Source of the DNA: an uncultured cyanobacterium
Lineage (GTDB): Bacteria; Cyanobacteriota; Cyanobacteriia; Cyanobacteriales; Nostocaceae
Assembly: GCA_963706595.1 (NCBI GenBank)
Contig: OY970166.1
Coordinates: 4,160,001-4,224,000 of the forward strand
DNA length: 64,000 nt
Reading direction: 5' to 3'
The notes below the pieces were generated by a model. That model saw nothing but the letters and a program-made list of their open reading frames with translations. It was not told where the DNA came from and made no database searches. Positions 46,336-57,926 of this stretch are shown in pieces. The number at the start of each line of letters is the position of its first letter. Position 1 is the first letter of the stretch. The position numbers and the translations under genes are program-made.

Positions 46336-47730
46336 TTAGTTTTTCTGAATTCCATAACACAAACGACCAATTAACCAATTATTATCTTCACTATTATTTG
46401 ATTTTCCAGACTGTAGTATTTCTGTTCTATTTTTCAATCCAATGAAAAACTCCTCTATACCCTGAGTCTTTGTCCCATCTTGTTCATTACTTCTTGCTTC
46501 CCAGTCCCACTCTTTCCACCAAATAGGCGTTTGTAACCTTTGAGCAAAAATATCAAATTTAAACTTATAAACACCCGATTCGGGAAACTTGTTAGGCTCA
46601 ATTAATGCCGAGAAATTTAATTTATTTTCCTGAATCTGCCAATCTTGTAATTGAAAAGCAGTATTAATATCTGAACTATTCATAACTTTGAATTTTTTTT
46701 CAAATTCATCAAATTTTTCCACATCGACTTTTGAATTAATCAAACTTTTGTCAGTATCAATAAGCAAACTATATTTAGCCGCATAAAAAGGGAGAGTATA
46801 ATTAATTGTCAAACTTTCCTCTTGTCGATTGTCTATTTGCAAAAGTTCACCAGGATAATTATCTTTAGTAACAGAAACTCCATTTTTAACCAAAGAAACA
46901 GGTCGGTTCACACCTGGAACTGTTATTGTTGGTAAAGTTTCTAGACTTGAGACACCATTAATTATATTTTCTGGATGAAAAATCATCAAATTACTATTAA
47001 CCATCAATTGTTGTGAATCATTCTTTTTTAAATAATCAAAATAATACTGAATATCACGATATGGACCAACAAACAGAACGTAAAATGGTCTGAATTTCTC
47101 CGGTTCTTTTCCAGAAGAATACGCAAAAGTTTTGAGTTTATTTAGCTCTTGTACATATACAGTCCCATTAAACTCACTTTTTATCGCCCAAATTCCCACT
47201 GCATAATCCTTTCTATCTAGGTTAAAATAAATATCTTGGATTTTTTTGGTTAGCCTAGTCACATCACCGCTATTTTGCTCTAAATCCGTAACTATAACCG
47301 TCATTCTTTCCTCATCTTTTTTGGGAGGAATAATCGCAGCATCAATGGGGCTAGATACAGCTTTAAATTTTGTATTACTACCATCATAAAATACAGGCGC
47401 TCCGGCATAACTATAATATTCACCTCCTGTAATTTTTTGGTTTGGATTATCCAGACGATAGTATTCAACTGGTAATTTACCTATTAATTCAAAGGCATTT
47501 CTAATACTATTTAAAGCTTTCACATAATTAGTCTTTCCATCTCTCACATACCCCAGCATTGAGCCACTACCATCAACATAAATTCCTACATTGAGATTGT
47601 CAGATTTAGAAAGATTACTTTGATTGAATGCCGGAATTTCACAGGTTAATTTATCCTTAACTGCCACTGGATTGCAAGCTGTTAAAACAGTTATTACAAA
47701 TCCTAAAAAAAACCATCTAAATTGCATCAT
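46336..47730 (-). CDS. Putative lipoprotein with divergent vWA (MIDAS) domain
   Basis: From ATG 47730: lipobox VLTAC; IYVDGSGSM (DxSxS) and VIVTD. Confidence 0.7.
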   Translation of the reverse strand: MMQFRWFFLGFVITVLTACNPVAVKDKLTCEIPAFNQSNLSKSDNLNVGIYVDGSGSMLGYVRDGKTNYVKALNSIRNAFELIGKLPVEYYRLDNPNQKITGGEYYSYAGAPVFYDGSNTKFKAVSSPIDAAIIPPKKDEERMTVIVTDLEQNSGDVTRLTKKIQDIYFNLDRKDYAVGIWAIKSEFNGTVYVQELNKLKTFAYSSGKEPEKFRPFYVLFVGPYRDIQYYFDYLKKNDSQQLMVNSNLMIFHPENIINGVSSLETLPTITVPGVNRPVSLVKNGVSVTKDNYPGELLQIDNRQEESLTINYTLPFYAAKYSLLIDTDKSLINSKVDVEKFDEFEKKFKVMNSSDINTAFQLQDWQIQENKLNFSALIEPNKFPESGVYKFKFDIFAQRLQTPIWWKEWDWEARSNEQDGTKTQGIEEFFIGLKNRTEILQSGKSNNSEDNNWLIGRLCYGIQKN

Positions 47731-48095
47731 TTTGTTTCCTGAAGAAATTGAGAACTTATGAATCAGAAGGGACAAGCAAGAAACCAGGAGAAAAAACCCC
47801 TAAATAAATTCAGAGTTTTCCCACGAAAATGCCTTTTTGCTATCACTATGTGTCCTGAAAATTTTTCTTAACTTTATTAATAATTAAATTTTAAAGGATT
47901 TAAGCCTGTGGAAAGAAGTCAAAAAATATTTCTTTCCTTTAGCTCCTGCCTTGATTGGGTAAAGATTTTTAAGTAAATGTACGGTAGTTTTAATTCTTAT
48001 AAAAAAAGGATGATAAAAGTATATCAAAAAATACTAGCGATAGCTTTAAGCACGATGTTAAGACTCTGGATACAGAACAACAATAAGGAGAGCTA

Positions 48096-48569
48096 ATGAA
48101 GCCGTGGGAAATAATTAGGATCATCATTTTTAACGTTATTGGTGCTGCACTAATGTTTTTGGGGCAGCGTCTCATCTATGAAAATCAAATCATACCCATT
48201 CAAAAAGTCCCCCTTGATACTTGGCTTGGTGCTGACTATACCACAGCCGCACTGATCATGTTTGGAGTTTGTCTGTTGTCCACGATGATTTGGTGTCTCA
48301 TTGCCGCAGTCAGTAAGTTTACTGATAGTAGAAATGCTGGGAGTTGGATGTTGTTTTGGTGGTTGTTAGGACTTTTACCCATAGCCAGCATTGGTTTTAC
48401 AGTGTTTTACATTAACCGCAGCGACGAAGCCCAGTTTTCGCTGATGGGATTTTTCCTTTTAGATGCTATCTGGCTGTATTGGTTCAGCACCGCCACTAGT
48501 TCTCCTGAAGCCGTGAAATATATTCCACCAGGAGCTTTTTTTATCCGTCATAAGCTGATGGGAGATTAA
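48096..48569 (+). CDS. Hypothetical 4-TM membrane protein, first gene of the tubulin/actin operon
   Basis: AAGGAG SD; four hydrophobic helices; 3 bp from next gene. Confidence 0.8.
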   Translation: MKPWEIIRIIIFNVIGAALMFLGQRLIYENQIIPIQKVPLDTWLGADYTTAALIMFGVCLLSTMIWCLIAAVSKFTDSRNAGSWMLFWWLLGLLPIASIGFTVFYINRSDEAQFSLMGFFLLDAIWLYWFSTATSSPEAVKYIPPGAFFIRHKLMGD

Positions 48570-48572
48570 TAA

Positions 48573-50072
48573 ATGTCAATTTATGTGATTGGAATTGGTG
48601 GTACTGGCGCTAAGTGCATTGAAGCTGTAATTCAATTAGCATCCATAGGACTTTTTGGCGAAGAAACCCTGAATTTATTGTTTGTTGATGCTGATGAAAA
48701 TAATGGTAATTTAGAACGGGCATTAAAAAGCCTAAAAATTTATCAAGATTGCCAAAATTTAGGTCTTGCTGATAAACATCCCTGGATGAAAACCAAAATT
48801 GAGTCCTTTGGTTTATGGTCGCCTTTTGCCAACACCAGCGTCAATAAAAACCTTAGCTCATTCTTTGAATATAATATTCTCAAAGATGATGAATCAGCAT
48901 TAGGAAATTTATTTGATGTTCTTTATACTTCAGAAGAACGCGATGCTAATTTAGACGTGGGTTTTCGTGGTCGCCCTGCTATTGGTGCGGCGGTGATGAG
49001 TCAGGTAAAACTTGATTCTTTAGACCATGACTCATGGGGACAACTAATGAGTCAACTGCAAAAAGACACTGGAGGAGGTAAACGCCCCAAAGTATTTTTA
49101 TGTGGCTCAATTTTTGGTGGTACAGGGGCTTCAGGATTACCAACTATTGGCCGTTTAATTCATAATAAGTTGGAAACTCTGCAAATTAGAACTAAAGTTG
49201 ATATTGGTTGCTTATTTGTTTTACCTTATTTTGGTTTTACTCCTACTTTGGGAGAAAATGCAGAAACAGTCTATGCTCGTTCTGAACAATTTTTATTAAA
49301 CACAGAAGCAGCACTGCGTTATTATGGCAGTCAAGCCCAAGACAGTTTTGACACTGTATATCTGTTGGGAAATCAAAACTTATCTCCAGTTAAAGTTTTT
49401 AGTGTTGGTAAAAATACTCAACGCAATGACCCCCATTTTATTGAACTCTATGCGGCATTAGCAGCACGGCAATTTTTATTGAATACAACTTCCGAACAAA
49501 AAAAAGTGGTGTTGATGAATCGGGAGAATTTGAGAAATCTGATTTGGAAAGATATTCCCGACCAAAAAGCAGTTAACTCAGAGTTAGTTAATGCCACTCG
49601 TTTTGCTTTTATGTGGTTATCTAATATTGCCCCAGCGTTAGCGGAAGCTAAGAAAATTGGTGTGAAAAGCTTCCAAAAAGGTAATAGTTGGTTTGTGAAA
49701 TTCTTTCCTGACCGCATTGTTTTTCGCAACAATCAAAGACAAGAAATAGATTTTAATGATCCAGAACAGCAAAATGCTATAGAAACAATTACTGTCTGGT
49801 GTCAAGATTATTTACGTTGGCTGTCATTAGTTCATCAATGTGCTGGTGAAAATATTCAATTATTCAATGCTCAACATTTCAGTAATAGTAAGCTGAATCC
49901 TCAGCATTTATCAGATTTAATTAGTGGCTTAGGTGACAGTCGAGATCAAAACCAGAAATCTCAGGACACAGTACAAAAACTCAAAGAACGTTTGCATCCT
50001 CCAGCTATCAGTCTGCCCAATCAAGGCATATTGGGACTGTCTAAAGCTTTATATCTTGTTTGTCGGTTGTAG
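48573..50072 (+). CDS. Divergent FtsZ/tubulin-superfamily GTPase (Tubulin_2-like)
   Basis: VIGIGGTG, GFRGRPAIG, signature loop GSIFGGTGASG. Confidence 0.85.
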   Translation: MSIYVIGIGGTGAKCIEAVIQLASIGLFGEETLNLLFVDADENNGNLERALKSLKIYQDCQNLGLADKHPWMKTKIESFGLWSPFANTSVNKNLSSFFEYNILKDDESALGNLFDVLYTSEERDANLDVGFRGRPAIGAAVMSQVKLDSLDHDSWGQLMSQLQKDTGGGKRPKVFLCGSIFGGTGASGLPTIGRLIHNKLETLQIRTKVDIGCLFVLPYFGFTPTLGENAETVYARSEQFLLNTEAALRYYGSQAQDSFDTVYLLGNQNLSPVKVFSVGKNTQRNDPHFIELYAALAARQFLLNTTSEQKKVVLMNRENLRNLIWKDIPDQKAVNSELVNATRFAFMWLSNIAPALAEAKKIGVKSFQKGNSWFVKFFPDRIVFRNNQRQEIDFNDPEQQNAIETITVWCQDYLRWLSLVHQCAGENIQLFNAQHFSNSKLNPQHLSDLISGLGDSRDQNQKSQDTVQKLKERLHPPAISLPNQGILGLSKALYLVCRL

Positions 50073-50086
50073 AAGGAAAGTTAATT

Positions 50087-53000
50087 ATGACCAGTGCATA
50101 TACTACCAATCAATCTGCTTTGTTGCTACCCAAACTCAAAGATGATTGTGATGTCAAGTCTGGGAATCCCGGGATTTGGGATTCTCAAGCCCCAAAAGCT
50201 TTTAATGATGTCGCCTCCAGCTTAGATTACAAAGCACCGGGAGAAGTTAAAAGTGTTAGTTCTGTTCCCACGATTTGGGCGCGTCCTTTATCAATGGAAA
50301 TGGCATTACACAATGATGCTTATCCGATTCGGGAACAAATGATCATTCAATGGCAAGGAATGTTAGCGGCTTTAGCATTAGCAGAAGTACGCGGTTTTCC
50401 GATTAAAGCGGAACTTTTGGAACTGGGAACGAAAAAGGATAGTCACGTTTTTGCCCGTTCTCTGTATGAACTTTTACCTGATCCAGTTAACACCCTTTAT
50501 ACGTTCAATAATAATAAACATCCTTGGGAAGATTTATATGTCTTTACTTGGAAGAATCAACCTATAGGGATGAGTTCTCCTAGTACCTTGGTTGTACCTT
50601 CAGAAGAAGGCATCTGGGACGGTTTACCTTGGTGGGATAGTAATATATTACAGTTGCGATCGCCTCATAATTACCTTAACGACACAGAAAAAGCCCAACT
50701 AGCATTTTGGTTAGATAACCTCCGCAGAGAAATTAGAAGATATAACGGTCAAAGTAAAGCAATTGACCGCATTGTTGGCTTAGTCAATGGCTTTATTAAC
50801 AGCTTAGGTGTGACAACTACACCTAACTTTCAATTTAGTGATAATCCTGCCTACTTTGAAGTAGAAATCAACCGAGGCGCGTTAACTGCACTCAATTTAC
50901 CTGTTAAAGTTGAGTCTAGGGAATCTAATGTGAGGATTGTTCCCAGTTTAGTTAAACCAAATGTTCCCCCACTACTGATAATTGATCCCGCCATTGCGAC
51001 CGCTTGGAATGAACCACCGCAGAACATTTGCGTTTATGAAGGTAAAAATTTAGCAGCTTTTCGTCCTGAAGATTTAGAAACCTGGAACCGGAGTAGAAAA
51101 GTAATCTGTCTGGAATCGAAAGATTTATTTTTACCAGACTTGAAATTTATTGATCAAGAAGGAATTTTACCAGGGGCTTTACTTCCCGAAGGAACTCAAA
51201 GCTTGGTCTTTAAAAATAGGAATATTACCCCTTTAATTCCTTTGAATCCGATTTTGTTAAATTACTTCACCCCAGAAGATTTAACCAAAAAGATTAAACT
51301 CCAACTGGTTAATAATGGTGCTGGCGGTTCACAAGTTCGGGTAAGTTTAACCTTACCTTTATATGGTGTTAAAGGTGGTAAAGTACCGCAAAACTTCTTT
51401 TTAGTTAAAGACTATCCTTTGCTAGAAGAAAACATCATTTACCAAGTACCTGTTTTAGAGGTATGGCCTGACTTCCGTGCTGAAGGTTGGAAAGAATATT
51501 ACGGCTTTTACTACGATGCTGAATATGGGGAAGAAACATTTCAAGTCAGTTTCCCCAATGCGAAAGATATTCATATTTTTAAAGAACGTAAAGGTTCTTA
51601 TCAAACAGTACAGCTAGAGGAATTTCCAGCATTTATTGAGTGTAAAGACATTTATACCAATACTGTTGGATTAATCCTATTAGCTACTCCAGAAGAAATT
51701 TCTCCAGTCGGAAACTGGGTAGTTGGTGTTGACTTTGGAACTTCTTTTACTAACGTATATGTCAACAAAAATGATAAAGTTACAGAAAGACTAAATCTAG
51801 AAAATCTGCATCGTAAAATTACTTACGTGTTGGTGGAAACTAGATTTCCAGTATTGTTTGAATACTTTATTCCCGAAAGCTTTATTCCCATAGATAAACC
51901 TTTCCCCATGTCTACTGTATTAACAAGGAAAGGCAGCAAAAATGCCAATGAAGACCAATTAAATCCAATTTTTGATGGTCGGCTGTATATTCCTGCTCGT
52001 AATCGCTTTGAGCCTCAACAGACATGGATTAGAACCAATCTTAAATGGGACACTATTAACTTAACCGATAATCAACTTTTTCTCAAACACCTGGCGCTAC
52101 ATATTACTGCGATCGCAGCTAAAAATGGCGTAAAAAATATTCAATGGTCTTTATCATTTCCATCTGCTTTCTCAGCAAAACAAGAACAAAATTATGCCAA
52201 GAATTGGCAGAAAATAACCAAAGAAATAGAAGCTAAGTCAAGTATTAAACACCAGAGTCCCGCCAAAGATGACCCCACTTATTTCCGTACAGAAAGTTTA
52301 GCATTTGCTCAATACTTTGCTGAATACGAAGATGAAAATCTTGTCAATACAACTTGTATTGATATGGGTGGTGGAACATCAGATATTTCCATTTGGCAGG
52401 ATGATGAGCTAGTTCATCAATGTTCAGTTGAATTAGCAGGTCGTGATTTATTCTCTCAATTCATTAAAATTAATCTTAATTTTCTCAAGAAGTTAGATAT
52501 CAATCCTGATGAGTGGAAAACACTGAACAAAGAAGAAGCTTTCAATGCCAAACTCGATGTATGGATGCGTCTAGAAGCCGCTAATTGGTTAGAGAAAAAA
52601 CGAGATTTATTAGAAGAAGATAAAGACTTTCAAGGACTGCTGCGTTTAATGGCAATAGGTGTATCTGGCTTATACTTTTATGTTGGTCAGATTCTTTCTG
52701 TTCTACACAAAGAGGATAAATATACTCTTGATGAAATTACTCCAGTGTATATAGGTGGTAATGGTTCGCGTTTGTTGCATTGGTTGGCTGAAGGTGGTGA
52801 ATTTGATAAAAATTCAGAAATTAATGGTTTATTAAGTCGAATGATGAGTGTAGCTTCTGGTTTTACTGATACAGAAGAACTCACACGCCTAAGTCAAAAT
52901 CCCAAAGATGAAGCTGCTTGCGGTCTAGTTTTGAAAGATAAAAAACTCAAAGGGTTAAATAAAAAGGAAAAAGATCATGTAATTGCCGGCGAAGATTGTG

Positions 53001-53362
53001 AAATTGATGGTCAAATCTTTAGTTGGCAAGATCGGTTACAAATTAAAGCAAAAACAATTTCTAAATATCAAATTCCTGAACTAACTCAGCTAAGATTATT
53101 TCTTGATGCTTTCCATGCTAGTTTAGAAGACTTAGGAATTGATGGCATTAAACCTCTAGAAGGTTATGAATTTGAAAAAGAATATCCAGATGATCCAGAC
53201 CCTGACTATAATCAAAAACTATGGAAAGCTACAGCTAGGGAGTTAAAAGATTCTTTAAATTCTATTAAAGGTGATGTTGAAAATATCCGTGAAGAACCAC
53301 CATTCATTCTAGCGTTAAAAGCATTGCTCAAAGTTTTAGCTAAGAATTGGGCTGGTAAATAA
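50087..53362 (+). CDS. Large protein with C-terminal actin/Hsp70 (ASKHA) fold ATPase domain
   Basis: Phosphate-1 VGVDFGTSFT, connect-1 TESLAFA, phosphate-2 IDMGGGTSDIS, adenosine IGGNGSRL, connect-2 PKDEAACGL; ATG 50087 with AAGGA SD. Confidence 0.8.
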   Translation: MTSAYTTNQSALLLPKLKDDCDVKSGNPGIWDSQAPKAFNDVASSLDYKAPGEVKSVSSVPTIWARPLSMEMALHNDAYPIREQMIIQWQGMLAALALAEVRGFPIKAELLELGTKKDSHVFARSLYELLPDPVNTLYTFNNNKHPWEDLYVFTWKNQPIGMSSPSTLVVPSEEGIWDGLPWWDSNILQLRSPHNYLNDTEKAQLAFWLDNLRREIRRYNGQSKAIDRIVGLVNGFINSLGVTTTPNFQFSDNPAYFEVEINRGALTALNLPVKVESRESNVRIVPSLVKPNVPPLLIIDPAIATAWNEPPQNICVYEGKNLAAFRPEDLETWNRSRKVICLESKDLFLPDLKFIDQEGILPGALLPEGTQSLVFKNRNITPLIPLNPILLNYFTPEDLTKKIKLQLVNNGAGGSQVRVSLTLPLYGVKGGKVPQNFFLVKDYPLLEENIIYQVPVLEVWPDFRAEGWKEYYGFYYDAEYGEETFQVSFPNAKDIHIFKERKGSYQTVQLEEFPAFIECKDIYTNTVGLILLATPEEISPVGNWVVGVDFGTSFTNVYVNKNDKVTERLNLENLHRKITYVLVETRFPVLFEYFIPESFIPIDKPFPMSTVLTRKGSKNANEDQLNPIFDGRLYIPARNRFEPQQTWIRTNLKWDTINLTDNQLFLKHLALHITAIAAKNGVKNIQWSLSFPSAFSAKQEQNYAKNWQKITKEIEAKSSIKHQSPAKDDPTYFRTESLAFAQYFAEYEDENLVNTTCIDMGGGTSDISIWQDDELVHQCSVELAGRDLFSQFIKINLNFLKKLDINPDEWKTLNKEEAFNAKLDVWMRLEAANWLEKKRDLLEEDKDFQGLLRLMAIGVSGLYFYVGQILSVLHKEDKYTLDEITPVYIGGNGSRLLHWLAEGGEFDKNSEINGLLSRMMSVASGFTDTEELTRLSQNPKDEAACGLVLKDKKLKGLNKKEKDHVIAGEDCEIDGQIFSWQDRLQIKAKTISKYQIPELTQLRLFLDAFHASLEDLGIDGIKPLEGYEFEKEYPDDPDPDYNQKLWKATARELKDSLNSIKGDVENIREEPPFILALKALLKVLAKNWAGK

Positions 53363-53379
53363 AACACTTGCTTTAAAAG

Positions 53380-53404
53380 TGGGCGATATATTCATATTCG
53401 CCCA
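53380..53404 (+). other. Intra-operon stem-loop
   Basis: TGGGCGATAT...ATATTCGCCCA without a T-tract. Confidence 0.45.
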
Positions 53405-53446
53405 AATTATATTAAAGTCAGTAAATCAACTATAAGGAGGTTAAAA

Positions 53447-54259
53447 ATGGAAAAAAATTCTAATAAATGTCCAGTTTGTCACACTGAATTTAGTGAGCAG
53501 GAAAAAAGAGAAATAGTAATAAACAATATAAATAAAATAAATAACTTTAAGATAAATTGTGAAAAACTAAACGAAGAAAATAAAAACTTGAGAATTCACA
53601 TAGAGGAATTAAACCAAAAAATACAAGAACTTCAAGAACAATTAATCAAGTATGACAGTCCTGATGATTCAGTAGTTCAATATAATGATGTAGAAATACA
53701 AGAACTTCTACAGAAATTAAAACATCCACTGGTTATTGAGGCTATTAAAAACATAATTCATAATCATGTTGAAAGCCAAGATAATTCAATATCTAATCAA
53801 GTTGGAGAAGATCTCAAAAATCAAAATGTAGATGAAATAATAACTGATGATGTAGAAAATAATTCTCCTGAGTCTGATACAGCTATAACATTACACGAAC
53901 AGGAATTAGTCAAGAATTATCAAGATTCAAATTTCGATTTTCAGCAATTTATAATTAGGGTCTCTGAACCAGAGCAAAGTCAAACTAATCGTTGGGGTGG
54001 TAGTAAAGAAGCAACAAGTTTTAAATATAATCGCCAAGGTAATTATTGGATAGTCAATATGGATAATGGTTTGTATATCGTGCCTCAAAAAAAGTTTAAG
54101 ATTAATGAATATAGCCAAGAAACATTAACCTCAACTTTTGATTGTCGTAACTATCAACCAGGAAAATCAGAAGATTTTGTTTTAATAAAACCTGGGAAAG
54201 TAATTGCTATAAGCGCAGAGGAATGGCAATTAGTAGAACGTGGTATCCTACACTTTTAA
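53447..54259 (+). CDS. Hypothetical coiled-coil protein with C-terminal repeat-family domain (copy 1)
   Basis: AAGGAGG SD; CPVC, coiled coil, GNYW...KPGKV...WQLVERGILHF. Confidence 0.8.
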   Translation: MEKNSNKCPVCHTEFSEQEKREIVINNINKINNFKINCEKLNEENKNLRIHIEELNQKIQELQEQLIKYDSPDDSVVQYNDVEIQELLQKLKHPLVIEAIKNIIHNHVESQDNSISNQVGEDLKNQNVDEIITDDVENNSPESDTAITLHEQELVKNYQDSNFDFQQFIIRVSEPEQSQTNRWGGSKEATSFKYNRQGNYWIVNMDNGLYIVPQKKFKINEYSQETLTSTFDCRNYQPGKSEDFVLIKPGKVIAISAEEWQLVERGILHF

Positions 54260-54269
54260 TCATTACATT

Positions 54270-55718
54270 ATGTTAAAAAGCAATTACATCAAATCTCTCC
54301 CTGTAGTTTTACTAATATCTCTGATGGTTGGGTGTGAACGTCCTCCCTTGGATTCCCAAAATAGTAATCCTACAGTTAAAATCAGTACATCTCCAATTGT
54401 TCAAGAGAAACCAGATAATTTAAATGCAGTTTTATCTGCATACAGTGAATTTAAGAACTCAATCACTAAGCTTAATTCTGAACTGAAAAATTTTGTAGTA
54501 GGGAATTTACAGCCAGACCAAGTAAATTTTAGCGAACCTAACAAAAAGCTAATTAAATTACAGGAATCTATTTTAGCTTTAAAAATACAGCTTAATGGCA
54601 TAAGTAATAATTCCGATATTAATCAATCTATTGATGATATAAATACAACAATTACAGATATTCAGAGAGTAATTAAACCAATAGAAAAAGGATTAAATTC
54701 TGCTGTTGTGCGTGAAGTTCAACAATTAATAGACCTGCAAAAAAATACAGGAATAGCTCCTACAGGTATTTTTAAAACCACTACACAGGAACAACTCGAA
54801 AAATTCCTTGTGCTAAGACTTGGAAATTTAGACCAGCAATTTAAAGAAATTGATAACCTTATTCAAAAAACAGAAAATATTTCCATTAATAACAATATTA
54901 TTAATCCTGATAGTCCAATTATCGCAAATTCTACGGCGGAAAATCAGGACGAAATTCTGATATCTAAATCAGCACTTGATAATATTTATAACCGGCTGAA
55001 TCTGACTGTGACTATTACCAGTTGTGGGTTTATTATCCTAGCTGGATTATTCGCATGGTTGATGTATAGGCTAAATCTCGTCGAAACCAGACTAAAATCT
55101 AGTAATTCCTCAAAAAATGAAACTCAATTAGGGAATATTAAAAATTATATTGAGAGCGAATTTACACAGATTGAACAGTATTTACAAAGTTTAGATACTA
55201 GGTTCAAAAATTTAGAAATATCTTCTCAAAATTATAGTTCACCAAATTATAAAGGTGAAAATAATCAATCCTATACTTCACAAAGTAACACAGCAACAAA
55301 TCATCCACAACCTAAAGTAGTAAATATTTCTCATTCTCAATCATCTACATCGAATAAAGAAACTCAGATAGTGACATTATATAATAATCAGCCTCGTTCT
55401 CTATCTGCAAATGCAATTACTGTGGCAGAAACTGATCACACAGTTGAACAACGTCGTATGGGTAGAACTGTTGCACCTATTTTAGAGGAAAATCAGCTAG
55501 GTAATTATTGGATAATTCAAGAAGGTCATAACGAATATCTTGTACCTAAAGGAAGTATTAAAATTAATGAATATAACTATGAAACAATATCAAGCTGTTT
55601 TGAATGTTTAGCATATAATCCAAATTATTCCAGTAATTTTATATTGTTAAAACTAGCAATAGTTTCATCTATAGGACAAAATTGGCAATTAATAGAACCA
55701 GGTGAATTACAATTTTAA
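54270..55718 (+). CDS. Putative lipoprotein with internal TM helix and C-terminal repeat-family domain (copy 2)
   Basis: Lipobox LMVGC, TM ITSCGFIILAGLFAWLMY, GNYW...WQLIEPGELQF; ATG 54270. Confidence 0.75.
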   Translation: MLKSNYIKSLPVVLLISLMVGCERPPLDSQNSNPTVKISTSPIVQEKPDNLNAVLSAYSEFKNSITKLNSELKNFVVGNLQPDQVNFSEPNKKLIKLQESILALKIQLNGISNNSDINQSIDDINTTITDIQRVIKPIEKGLNSAVVREVQQLIDLQKNTGIAPTGIFKTTTQEQLEKFLVLRLGNLDQQFKEIDNLIQKTENISINNNIINPDSPIIANSTAENQDEILISKSALDNIYNRLNLTVTITSCGFIILAGLFAWLMYRLNLVETRLKSSNSSKNETQLGNIKNYIESEFTQIEQYLQSLDTRFKNLEISSQNYSSPNYKGENNQSYTSQSNTATNHPQPKVVNISHSQSSTSNKETQIVTLYNNQPRSLSANAITVAETDHTVEQRRMGRTVAPILEENQLGNYWIIQEGHNEYLVPKGSIKINEYNYETISSCFECLAYNPNYSSNFILLKLAIVSSIGQNWQLIEPGELQF

Positions 55719-55732
55719 TCAACACAAATTAC

Positions 55733-56848
55733 ATGGAAATGCAAAATATTGAAAAGGTGGATTTTTCGGAAAATGAATTAATTATATTATATAATTATAT
55801 TCCCCGTCTAATTGAAAAATCTGCAATATTAGTTAATTTATCTCCTAGTTACTATACAAACGGTAAGCAGGAAATATTGCTGACAGAAGATACAAAAGGA
55901 AATTACTGGGTTATTGCAACTGATTATGATATTTATTGGCTGTTTCCCATTGCGACACTCAAGGGTAAATTTAACCACCATGTCAATGAAGCATTAAATC
56001 TATTATTTGAGTTTAAAAATTACGAAAATTCAGAAAATCGTGAATTTACGCTGAAAAAACCAGCTAAAGTTTATCCTGCGATTAGTCGGGAAGGTTGGAT
56101 ACTAGAATCAACAGGTTTTCTGGATTTTACTAATTTACGGTTATTATCTATTGAAACATCAAATGGCAACAGCAATAAAATACCATTAATACAGGAAAAT
56201 TCAACTTTACAGCTATCACAAAAAGAATTTGAGGAATATAGAAGTAAAGTTGAGGCGGAAATTAATCTATTAAAAATGCAAGTTCAACAGTTGACGGAAG
56301 CGCGAGAACAATTTAAAACCGAAATTAAAGAAATTAAGGATAGGTATTTTAGTTTAGAAACTCAACTACCAGCGACAGCAGAACACAATAGTTCTAGTAA
56401 TCATCAGGTTGAGAATACTCAAGAGGTAAAAATATCAAATCAGGATAATTCAATTAATATATCTACAGAATTAAATCTCACTTCTGAAGAATTACGAATT
56501 GTTGAAACATATAATTATAATCCTGTGATAATTTCACAGCAAGCGAAGCAAGTTTCTGAAACTACAACTAGTATTGAAAAGCGTAGTCAGGGTATTAATG
56601 ATACAGTTGTTTTAGAAAAACAATCTCAAGGTCATTACTGGTTGGTTGGTAAAGAGACATTATATTTAATGCCTAGACGAGGTTTCAAGATAAATCGCTC
56701 AACTGTAGATACTTTTAAAGCTTTATTTCAATTTCGAGGAAGTAAAGTTCCAAGTAAGTTTAAGTTAATCAAACCTGCTCAGGTAGCTATGATAATTAAT
56801 TCACAAACTTGGCAACTAACCGAGCGGGGAATTATTGAATTTGAATAA
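55733..56848 (+). CDS. Hypothetical protein with two repeat-family domains (copies 3, 4) around a coiled coil
   Basis: GNYW...KPAKV...WILESTGFLDF and GHYW...KPAQV...WQLTERGIIEF. Confidence 0.8.
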   Translation: MEMQNIEKVDFSENELIILYNYIPRLIEKSAILVNLSPSYYTNGKQEILLTEDTKGNYWVIATDYDIYWLFPIATLKGKFNHHVNEALNLLFEFKNYENSENREFTLKKPAKVYPAISREGWILESTGFLDFTNLRLLSIETSNGNSNKIPLIQENSTLQLSQKEFEEYRSKVEAEINLLKMQVQQLTEAREQFKTEIKEIKDRYFSLETQLPATAEHNSSSNHQVENTQEVKISNQDNSINISTELNLTSEELRIVETYNYNPVIISQQAKQVSETTTSIEKRSQGINDTVVLEKQSQGHYWLVGKETLYLMPRRGFKINRSTVDTFKALFQFRGSKVPSKFKLIKPAQVAMIINSQTWQLTERGIIEFE

Positions 56849-57191
56849 GCTTAAGTAAGTTGTTGAGAAAAATTTAATGTATATAAAAAGATATTAGCTG
56901 TTGCACTGTAAATTGGTGAAGGTGCGTTGCGCTTCGCGACAACACACCCTACTTAATTTGTCTTTAGATTGTCAGAAGTATTCGTGCTTACCTACTTATT
57001 TATATGAAGTATAATTTACGAAGTCTCAAACCTAAAACAGAAAAGCTGTTAGATAAACTCAAGGAACTGAAACTTCAACTGCAAGATTTATTTTTACCTA
57101 AAATAGGGGGGAAATGTGTACACAACCTATATTTATAGTAGAATTAAAGGCTTTATTGACTATTTTATCACAAAGGTGGGATTAATAACTA

Positions 57192-57926
57192 ATGTCTACA
57201 ATAAAGTTTGATGAACTTGTCCGCAGTTTTAATAATTTGAGACAACTTTGTTATCAGAATTTTGCCGTTAGAATAACTAATATAGAAGATTATCTATCTA
57301 CACTTACTGACCGAGTTATAGAGGGAAAGGTGATAGTTAATGGTAATTTTGAGGCAGAAAAAGTTAGCCGTGTGAATATTTCTGAGTCTCAGTTGGTGCA
57401 AGTTTATAATGATGTTCCTCAAGTTTTAGGGAAAAATTCTGTTGTTTTGGAATTAACTGCTAAAAGTTATCGTAATCTTCAACATGGTGAACCAATTTTC
57501 CTGGAAAATGATGAGAATGGTAAATATTGGATGATTACAACTGATATAGATCGGTTTTTTGTTGTGCCAAGTATGAATGTTAAATCAAATATACACAAAT
57601 TAAGAACTGTCAAAATGTTGTTTGATTTCTCTGGTGATGAGCCGTCAGCAGATAGTGATTTTATATTAATTGAACCTGCAAAAGTTTCTAGTCAAGCCAG
57701 TGGTAAGGAATGGAAACTAAAAGAAAGGGGGATTTTGGAATTTAAGAATGCTTTTTTGCCGAATCAAAATTTTCAAACAAATGTGGAAGATTCTAATTTA
57801 GAAATAAAAAAAATTGCTCAACAGTTAGATGATTTAAAAATTCAGTTCTATGAGTCGCAGCAAGAAAGAATAAAATTACAGTTGCAAGTTGAAGAAATAG
57901 CGAATAAGTTAAAATGGTTAGATTAA
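57192..57926 (+). CDS. Hypothetical protein with repeat-family domain (copy 5) and C-terminal coiled coil
   Basis: GKYW...EPAKV...WKLKERGILEF. Confidence 0.8.
   Translation: MSTIKFDELVRSFNNLRQLCYQNFAVRITNIEDYLSTLTDRVIEGKVIVNGNFEAEKVSRVNISESQLVQVYNDVPQVLGKNSVVLELTAKSYRNLQHGEPIFLENDENGKYWMITTDIDRFFVVPSMNVKSNIHKLRTVKMLFDFSGDEPSADSDFILIEPAKVSSQASGKEWKLKERGILEFKNAFLPNQNFQTNVEDSNLEIKKIAQQLDDLKIQFYESQQERIKLQLQVEEIANKLKWLD

Follow-up and report, generated by a model that had tools for sequence, protein, structure and literature searches.

Why should a cyanobacterium encode, immediately behind a tubulin-like gene, a giant protein with a nucleotide-binding domain of the actin/Hsp70 type, and what could the two proteins do together? 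The question is raised by positions 50087-53362 of a 64,000-nucleotide stretch of DNA (hereafter the window, meaning the whole stretch that was analysed; contig OY970166.1 of assembly GCA_963706595.1, positions 4,160,001 to 4,224,000) from an uncultured cyanobacterium of the Nostocaceae. Our results show that this ATPase family and the gene cassette in which it resides are real and unstudied, and that they belong, as a variant, with the previously predicted operons of non-division tubulins. As to their role, the reading that we favour, at a probability of about 0.5, is a dedicated heterocomplex of a tubulin-type GTPase and an actin-type ATPase, apart from FtsZ, FtsA and MreB, which, anchored at the envelope, would act as a threshold switch in conflicts between organisms or with phages.

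The giant ATPase and its nucleotide-binding domain

The gene is one open frame with an ATG start, and it is a single copy in a one-contig genome of 5.57 Mb, where the family profile elsewhere matches only an MreB-like open reading frame (ORF). The protein is divided as follows, its N-terminal half consisting of three parts.

50087..53362, forward strand: giant actin/Hsp70-fold (ASKHA) ATPase, 1091 residues (ORF, motifs, AlphaFold2 model, fold matches)
50114..50896, forward strand: N domain, residues about 10-270, the predicted tubulin clamp (complex model; boundary from forms without the N domain)
50909..51442, forward strand: middle beta-rich region, residues about 275-452 (no PDB fold match)
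51443..51703, forward strand: Ig-like beta-sandwich, residues 453-539 (weak match: Z 3.5, root-mean-square deviation 3.6, 80 aligned)
51707..52951, forward strand: ASKHA nucleotide-binding domain, residues 541-955 (intact motifs, fold matches)
52952..53359, forward strand: C-terminal extension, residues 956-1091 (AlphaFold2 model)

The first-pass annotation, made from the letters of the window, had noticed five ASKHA motifs in order and the lack of an Hsp70 substrate-binding domain, and both observations are borne out. The motifs run D549-F-G-T-S, T-E736-S-x-A, D759-M-G-G-G-T-S-D766, G-G891-N-G-S and P-K940-D-E-A-A-x-G-L, which we take to be the phosphate-1, connect-1 (Glu), phosphate-2, adenosine and connect-2 motifs, all intact. 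They are near-invariant in 131 full-length homologs, with D549, G551, E736, G761, D766, G891, K940 and E942 found in 131/131 and D759 in 130/131. The AlphaFold2 model (67 sequences; predicted local distance difference test, pLDDT, 89.9; predicted template modelling score, pTM, 0.80) has the two-lobed RNase-H-like fold, and residues 541-955 match MreB (4cze) with Z 20.1 (root-mean-square deviation 3.4, 275 aligned), followed by FtsA (Z 18.3), BeeR (18.2) and Hsp110 (17.2), while ParM, CorM and Alp structures are also among the fold matches. The nucleotide-binding domains of MreB, BeeR, CorM and Hsp70 share this ASKHA fold at Z 17-20 with 11-18% identity (BeeR being named after its PDB title and a literature listing, PMC11929497), whereas the ATPase has 540 additional N-terminal and 135 additional C-terminal residues and stays below every family cut-off. 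Judging from the fold and from the conserved residues D549, E736 and D759, the domain very probably binds and hydrolyses ATP.

In Foldseek, DnaK, BiP and Hsp110 rank first (DnaK E 5e-8), and the phosphate-2 Asp and the SFPSAF motif presumably also look Hsp70-like. This speaks for a specialised Hsp70-like chaperone or remodeller in the assembly of envelope complexes, in which the tubulin would be a client or co-chaperone while GrpE-like nucleotide exchange would fall to the X proteins described below, a reading that we consider improbable. The substrate-binding beta-sandwich and lid of Hsp70 are absent, the C-terminal 135 residues being three helices and short strands, and the annotated neighbours include no DnaJ gene.

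By sequence, Pfam and NCBIfam gave only sub-threshold FtsA and MreB matches at one motif (FtsA 17.8 bits with a cut-off of 31.8, MreB 14.3 with 27, NCBIfam models far below cut-off), and no Pfam family is assigned. The HSP70 Pfam model, a PDB sequence search and a phage collection yielded no match to the ATPase, and scans for promoters and terminators reached chance level only. The family itself comprises 489 proteins among 8000 scored candidates, its named members being cyanobacterial; clustered at 50%, it has 1311 clusters at E<=0.001 and 493 at E<=1e-30.

SrfB is an actin-fold protein of about 1000 residues with a long N-terminal extension, and by this description it shares its size and type of extension with the ATPase. 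As an identity for the ATPase it was rejected, since the SrfB model (PF07520) does not match the ATPase at E<=0.1 and matches a different gene of 1137 residues in this genome. The latter, a second giant ASKHA frame at G000:C1:5348911-5352321, lies outside the window, is unrelated, matches the SrfB model weakly and follows an ORF of about 850 residues; SrfB-like matches occur in 34/35 other genomes of the source organism's family. The ESM Atlas gave leads only, namely a best score of 0.89 for the N-terminal half (unnamed clusters), one further lead of 0.82 with SrfB on 19% of its members, and 0.78 for the protein X1.

The N-terminal half and its predicted tubulin partner

The N-terminal half had been described at first as matching nothing recognisable, and searches of Pfam, NCBIfam, PADLOC and PDB sequences were indeed empty. 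Folded alone, it reaches pLDDT 86.0 with residues 60-450 confident. Foldseek against the PDB gave nothing at E<=0.001, and a wide structural search gave a best Z of 3.5 with matches that mainly cover residues 453-539, so that residues 60-450 were barely tested; no PDB fold matches the predicted structure of this stretch, which falls short of proof that the fold is new. Conservation is seen in residues 15-60 (L14, P15, G29, W31, L46), yet their confidence is low when the half is folded alone, which suggests that they fold on a partner. The candidate partner is encoded directly upstream.

48573..50072, forward strand: short tubulin-like GTPase, 499 residues, with a weak Tubulin_2 match

This protein scores 32.3 bits with Tubulin_2 (cut-off 27), and most positions of its GTP loops, G9-G12 and S179-A186, are invariant in 40 rows, the GGTG loop being so in 40/40 cassette tubulins. 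All 40 aligned tubulins are 450-578 residues long and group as a single clade, separate from FtsZl1, with support of 0.84 in a tree whose comparison set was 6 cyanobacterial FtsZl1 and one FtsZ only. The tubulin stop lies 14 bp before the ATPase start, as first noticed, and a purine-rich ribosome-binding site overlaps this stop codon. Such an arrangement would fit co-translation, so the translational coupling then proposed is compatible with it and not proven, and among relatives the gap ranges over 2-1307 bp (L067, L012 and L020 being skipped as duplicates in the count of gaps and distances). In the related genomes at L060, L062 and L072, Uma2-type endonuclease genes are inserted between the tubulin and the ATPase, and L072 also has a PADLOC PDC-S09-like gene.

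The link between the two neighbours, for which the first-pass annotation had proposed a multimer model, gained considerable support. Using tubulin 1-499 and ATPase residues 8-452, with alignments of 40 rows each from the same loci, the complex scored 0.84-0.86 versus 0.00 for the best control, with 258-270 contacts, agreement between runs in at least 93% of contacts and partner pLDDT of at least 84. In a benchmark, 116/157 solved pairs attained this score mark, as against 2/215 mismatched ones, which is only a rough guide for our own alignments. The ATPase contacts are confined to residues 10-175, including the conserved low-confidence stretch, and the main and closest tubulin contacts lie in an insert of residues 105-122, which is specific to this tubulin family and absent from FtsZ and the 3 FtsZl1 rows compared. 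Moreover, the interface is more conserved than the rest (0.515 versus 0.435 in the ATPase, 0.63 versus 0.51 in the tubulin), and a permutation test that ignores burial and relatedness gives p of about 0.008 for positions inside the N domain and, on the tubulin side, <1e-4. No similar solved complex turned up in PDB searches, hence recall from a solved structure is unlikely. Two natural tubulin-ATPase fusions, P0178 and P0184, are found, and a tubulin lies at most 1.5 kb upstream of 49/52 N-domain genes. By this model, the N domain is likely to wrap a family-specific surface of the short tubulin, and the two proteins probably bind each other.

The textbook example of bacterial tubulin-fold and actin-fold proteins that work jointly is FtsZ-FtsA, in which the FtsZ tail peptide binds the ATPase. 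The likeness is that the gene of a tubulin-fold GTPase has for a neighbour the gene of an actin-fold ATPase which binds this GTPase near the membrane, the binding here being predicted; the difference is that a separate N domain is predicted to bind onto the tubulin core in place of a tail peptide on the ATPase. Also unlike FtsZ-FtsA, the cassette is not universal, its ATPase falls short of the FtsA cut-off as given above, and canonical FtsZ is encoded elsewhere in the source genome, as is an MreB-like gene. The cassette would represent a second, unrelated coupling of tubulin and actin folds with a concrete predicted interface.

Forms without the N domain

Proteins of the family that have lost the N domain give a further view of this pairing. 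Six catalytic residues were scored in 271 proteins, of which 216 bear the N domain, 12 have it replaced, 21 are short N-less forms and 22 were unscorable due to an incomplete ATPase domain, the last two groups being kept apart from the comparison of decay. All six residues are intact in 214/216 of the N-bearing proteins versus 1/12 of those with a foreign domain in place of N, which indicates that ATPase activity is kept under selection mainly alongside the tubulin-binding domain; the sole intact replaced form is 86% identical to a normal copy. The replacing domains are caspase in four cases, TIR in three, kinase in two and the X domain in one, with two unassigned, and the active-site motifs of the fused caspases and kinases are intact. 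The middle region is mostly retained in the effector-fused forms, whose ATPase part starts at residue 250-345 or so. Since for 10 of the 12 replaced forms a non-fused homolog is nearer than any other fusion, immune-type effectors have taken over the ATPase body more than once. Degeneration also affects a CHAT fusion (L011) and three second copies of about 730 residues.

Such second copies, pseudo-ATPase paralogs without the N domain and with broken motifs, are seen among the X genes, at L007:16765-18963, L009:15846-18038, L066:7513-9693 and L056:4949-7879; they have about 730 residues, or 976 with a fused X domain. Natural pseudo-ATPase fusions provide built-in controls.

The cassette and the X domain

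The cassette has about 8 genes at 46336-57926, in the order of a divergent vWA lipoprotein, a 157-residue membrane protein, the tubulin, the ATPase and four paralogs with an X domain. Besides the two central genes it contains the following.

46336..47727, reverse strand: vWA lipoprotein, divergently transcribed, with D52/S56/T147/D148 resembling a metal-ion-dependent adhesion site (MIDAS)
48096..48569, forward strand: small membrane protein, 157 residues, with 3 hydrophobic segments by a simple scan and no family match
53447..54259, forward strand: X1, with a Zn-ribbon-like start, a coiled coil and an X domain at residues 153-270
54270..55718, forward strand: X2, with a lipoprotein-type signal, an exported part, one transmembrane helix, a cytoplasmic coiled coil and a C-terminal X domain
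55733..56848, forward strand: X3, with two X domains and a coiled-coil linker
57192..57926, forward strand: X4, with an X domain and then a C-terminal coiled coil

The profile of the vWA lipoprotein matches the TRAP vWA domain with E 0.0057, and in more distant relatives this gene has the same orientation as the cassette. The X domain has about 118 residues and occurs in 1-7 proteins per locus, in architectures of Zn-ribbon, coil and X, of signal or transmembrane helix, coil and X, or of tandem X; it has no PDB match and no consistent Pfam match. The Zn-ribbon-like start of X1 has one CxxC here and two in most relatives, and an X2 relative in locus L050 has a weak PG_binding_1 match (22.9 bits, cut-off 23). 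The X genes are AT-rich (29-31% G+C versus 41% for the genome), and their proteins diverge faster than the core, as in L001, where the X proteins show 57-63% versus 85-86% for the core.

In 5 proteins X is fused to the ATPase, at either end, which suggests a contact of X with the middle or ATPase part. Judging from gene order and these fusions, it is rather plausible that the X proteins dock on the middle or ATPase part and link the pair to the envelope by way of the membrane-spanning X2, the vWA lipoprotein and the small membrane protein. In other loci X is fused to WD40 repeats (L047:2275-4386), a TM2 domain (L063:13620-14867) or four transmembrane helices (L052:13526-14944), which are sensor-like and variable.

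For the chaperone reading, X combines a coiled coil with a small beta domain and has a PA-x-V motif like GrpE, and themes of HSP70 with GrpE in GAP1-N2 systems are described by Kaur et al. 2020 (PMC7159879). On the other side, comparison of X with a profile of 25 GrpE sequences gave a probability of 1.2% over 11 columns only, leaving the identification of X as GrpE unsupported. The best GrpE match of the source genome, at G000:C1:3209644-3210130, is divided between two neighbouring open frames of 151 and 149 residues, which suggests a frameshift or a sequencing error.

Distribution and genomic context

Among 301 genomes of the phylum the ATPase is present in 32 and the short tubulin in 30, all of them within the 32, and the cassette occurs in about one tenth of the genomes sampled; the tubulin model for this count was built from cassette loci, and the two genomes with the ATPase alone have only C-terminal fragments of it. 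Within the source organism's own family its presence is patchy (8/35). The tubulin lies directly upstream in 12 of 15 genome loci, the others being 2 stand-alone fusions and 1 locus cut by a contig end, and the cassette order is retained in most of 34 further genome stretches. Split or fragmentary cassettes with stops, frameshifts or missing parts are seen at L049, L054, L013, L015, L077, L078 and L128, and would reflect frequent decay or assembly error.

In metagenomes, 10 of 50 loci keep the cassette order at about 14-25% identity, about 34 of the 50 being ordinary single-motif ASKHA matches and L109 being left unscored. These distant loci are apparently non-cyanobacterial judging by their neighbours, with a weak Prevotella match and Atlas leads below 0.9 as backing, and their variable downstream genes include TerD pairs, trypsins with ZorB, a DO-GTPase and TPR proteins. 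In three of them the gene right after the ATPase matches X weakly (E 2e-4, 9e-4 and 8e-3), and these matches rank 1, 2 and 4 among ORFs outside the cyanobacteria-like loci. In two distant loci (L100:6723-8339 and L117:8062-9705) a gene of 539-548 residues after the ATPase resembles by eye a degenerate Hsp70/actin type, with no Pfam match.

Full-length copies are also carried by 5 plasmids, including those of culturable Picosynechococcus strains. Together with the fold matches to ParM, CorM and Alp, these copies would suit a ParM/TubZ-like role in the segregation of plasmids or islands, which is nevertheless very improbable, as the copy here is chromosomal, the cassette has no DNA-binding adaptor, its partners being membrane proteins and lipoproteins, and the phage collection holds no match.

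Comparison with described systems

The closest described system is the vWA operons of FtsZl1 (Tubulin_2, PF13809) reported by Makarova and Koonin 2010 (PMC2875224). In both, a divergent tubulin outside cell division is encoded next to a vWA (lipo)protein and to small membrane proteins, with variable partners including MotA/OmpA-type (ZorAB-like) genes and a GTPase. The tubulins differ: FtsZl1 has 763-1393 residues in the rows compared that state a length and is described with a coiled coil (PMC2875224), as against 499 residues here. Cyanobacterial FtsZl1 scores about 370 bits with Tubulin_2 against 20-40 bits for cassette tubulins, and the FtsZl1 type of about 1000 residues with a coiled coil and a helical C-terminal domain is not found in any of the 40 cassette tubulins. 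No giant actin-fold partner stands among the operon components in supplement 6 of that paper, while supplement 5 gives one Magnetospirillum FtsZl1 operon with a 1626-residue 'DnaK'.

Another relevant group, treated by Kaur et al. 2020 (PMC7159879), is that of the GAP1-N2 DO-GTPase conflict systems that include tubulin or HSP70/GrpE. They resemble the cassette in the threshold logic of NTPases, in tubulin, HSP70-fold and vWA components, and in the use of inactive enzyme copies. Likewise the distant locus L110 has a downstream DO-GTPase, with no GAP1 Pfam match, and P0109 joins a trypsin with VMAP-M1. According to that paper, GAP1-N2 systems are defined by DO-GTPase with GAP1 and are nearly absent from cyanobacteria, and within them the tubulin theme and the HSP70 theme stay separate, whereas in the cassette tubulin and ATPase are a near-obligate pair; a Pfam scan found no DO-GTPase or GAP1 gene among the cassette genes of the window. 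A description of the ATPase-tubulin pair was not found in the open-access literature, a search outside which the supplements of Kaur 2020 lay, so that they could list it. Synechocystis locus tags considered as those of a possible studied copy were wrong, sll0176 being the nickel sensor InrS by literature listing.

A possible switch in biological conflict

How could such a pair work? In a conflict switch, the N domain would clamp the tubulin-like GTPase via its family-specific surface, and the pair would hydrolyse ATP and GTP. A cue from outside or from the envelope, such as phage adsorption or injection, contact with a predator or neighbour, or envelope damage, would be relayed to both NTPases, whose nucleotide state would cause a higher-order structure at the membrane to assemble or to be released. 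Once its tubulin-binding domain is lost, a copy would decay to a pseudo-ATPase and find new use as the sensor or decoy body of an active caspase, TIR or kinase effector. Patchiness, plasmid copies, AT-rich X genes, variable and fast X, and the distant ZorB, trypsin, TerD and DO-GTPase neighbours are typical of conflict systems, and we arrive at this reading by following the grammar laid out in Kaur et al. 2020 (PMC7159879).

The main rival is an accessory cytoskeleton or envelope remodelling in the manner of FtsZ-FtsA, where the ATPase would tether or regulate tubulin filaments at the membrane for cell shape, vesicles or a surface structure, with no defence role; we regard it as unlikely, if a serious candidate. 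The top fold matches to MreB, FtsA and BeeR (Z 20.1, 18.3 and 18.2) would suit it, as would the lipoprotein, transmembrane and weak PG-binding parts of the cassette, and membrane remodelling was proposed for the sister FtsZl1-vWA operons by Makarova and Koonin (PMC2875224). It fits less well with a cassette that is patchy, sometimes plasmid-borne and often broken or fragmentary, with the fast turnover of X paralogs, with the repeated capture of the ATPase by caspase, TIR and kinase domains, and with the canonical FtsZ and MreB-like genes already elsewhere in the genome.

What the computation shows is the fold, the conservation of the motifs, the cassette, the co-occurrence and the pattern of fusion and decay; binding of the N domain to the tubulin is a prediction with controls, and ATP and GTP hydrolysis, X docking, the envelope link and the biological role are inferences. 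Several points weigh against the conflict switch. No toxic effector is obvious in the intact cassette, PADLOC 2.0 gave only weak coiled-coil matches on its genes, which are noise, and its flanks in the window are housekeeping genes. Around 31 cyanobacterial loci, PADLOC matched 18/116 flanking or intervening ORFs, mostly with generic domains and with no control set, so that a clear defence-island signal, whose absence also suits remodelling, is not seen. In one system caspases are reported with as many as 50 different domains fused at the C-terminal side (Kaur 2020, PMC7159879), and by analogy with such promiscuity the fusions here may show module capture only. Moreover, 11/21 short N-less forms are catalytically intact, though these are probably truncations; related sequences are not independent in any of our counts; and the use of paired 40-row alignments may tip the model towards a complex.

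A wider claim, that the cassette is a second, independently evolved tubulin-actin machine of bacteria, in which a lock of new fold serves an envelope immune switch in several phyla and the ATPase body is repeatedly captured as a decoy by caspase, TIR and kinase effectors, which would imply that invaders target or trigger it, is tentative and we think it doubtful as a whole. The cassette also brings a stretch of about 400 residues for which the PDB offers no fold match, together with a new adaptor domain of about 118 residues, and the old question of what FtsZl1-type non-division tubulin operons do becomes directly testable with two soluble proteins and a named interface.

Outside the cassette, an ORF of 141 residues at 38655-39080 of the window has a weak DUF2281 (antitoxin-like) tail, and it stands beside a gene of 500 residues which we take to be RecB-nuclease-like.

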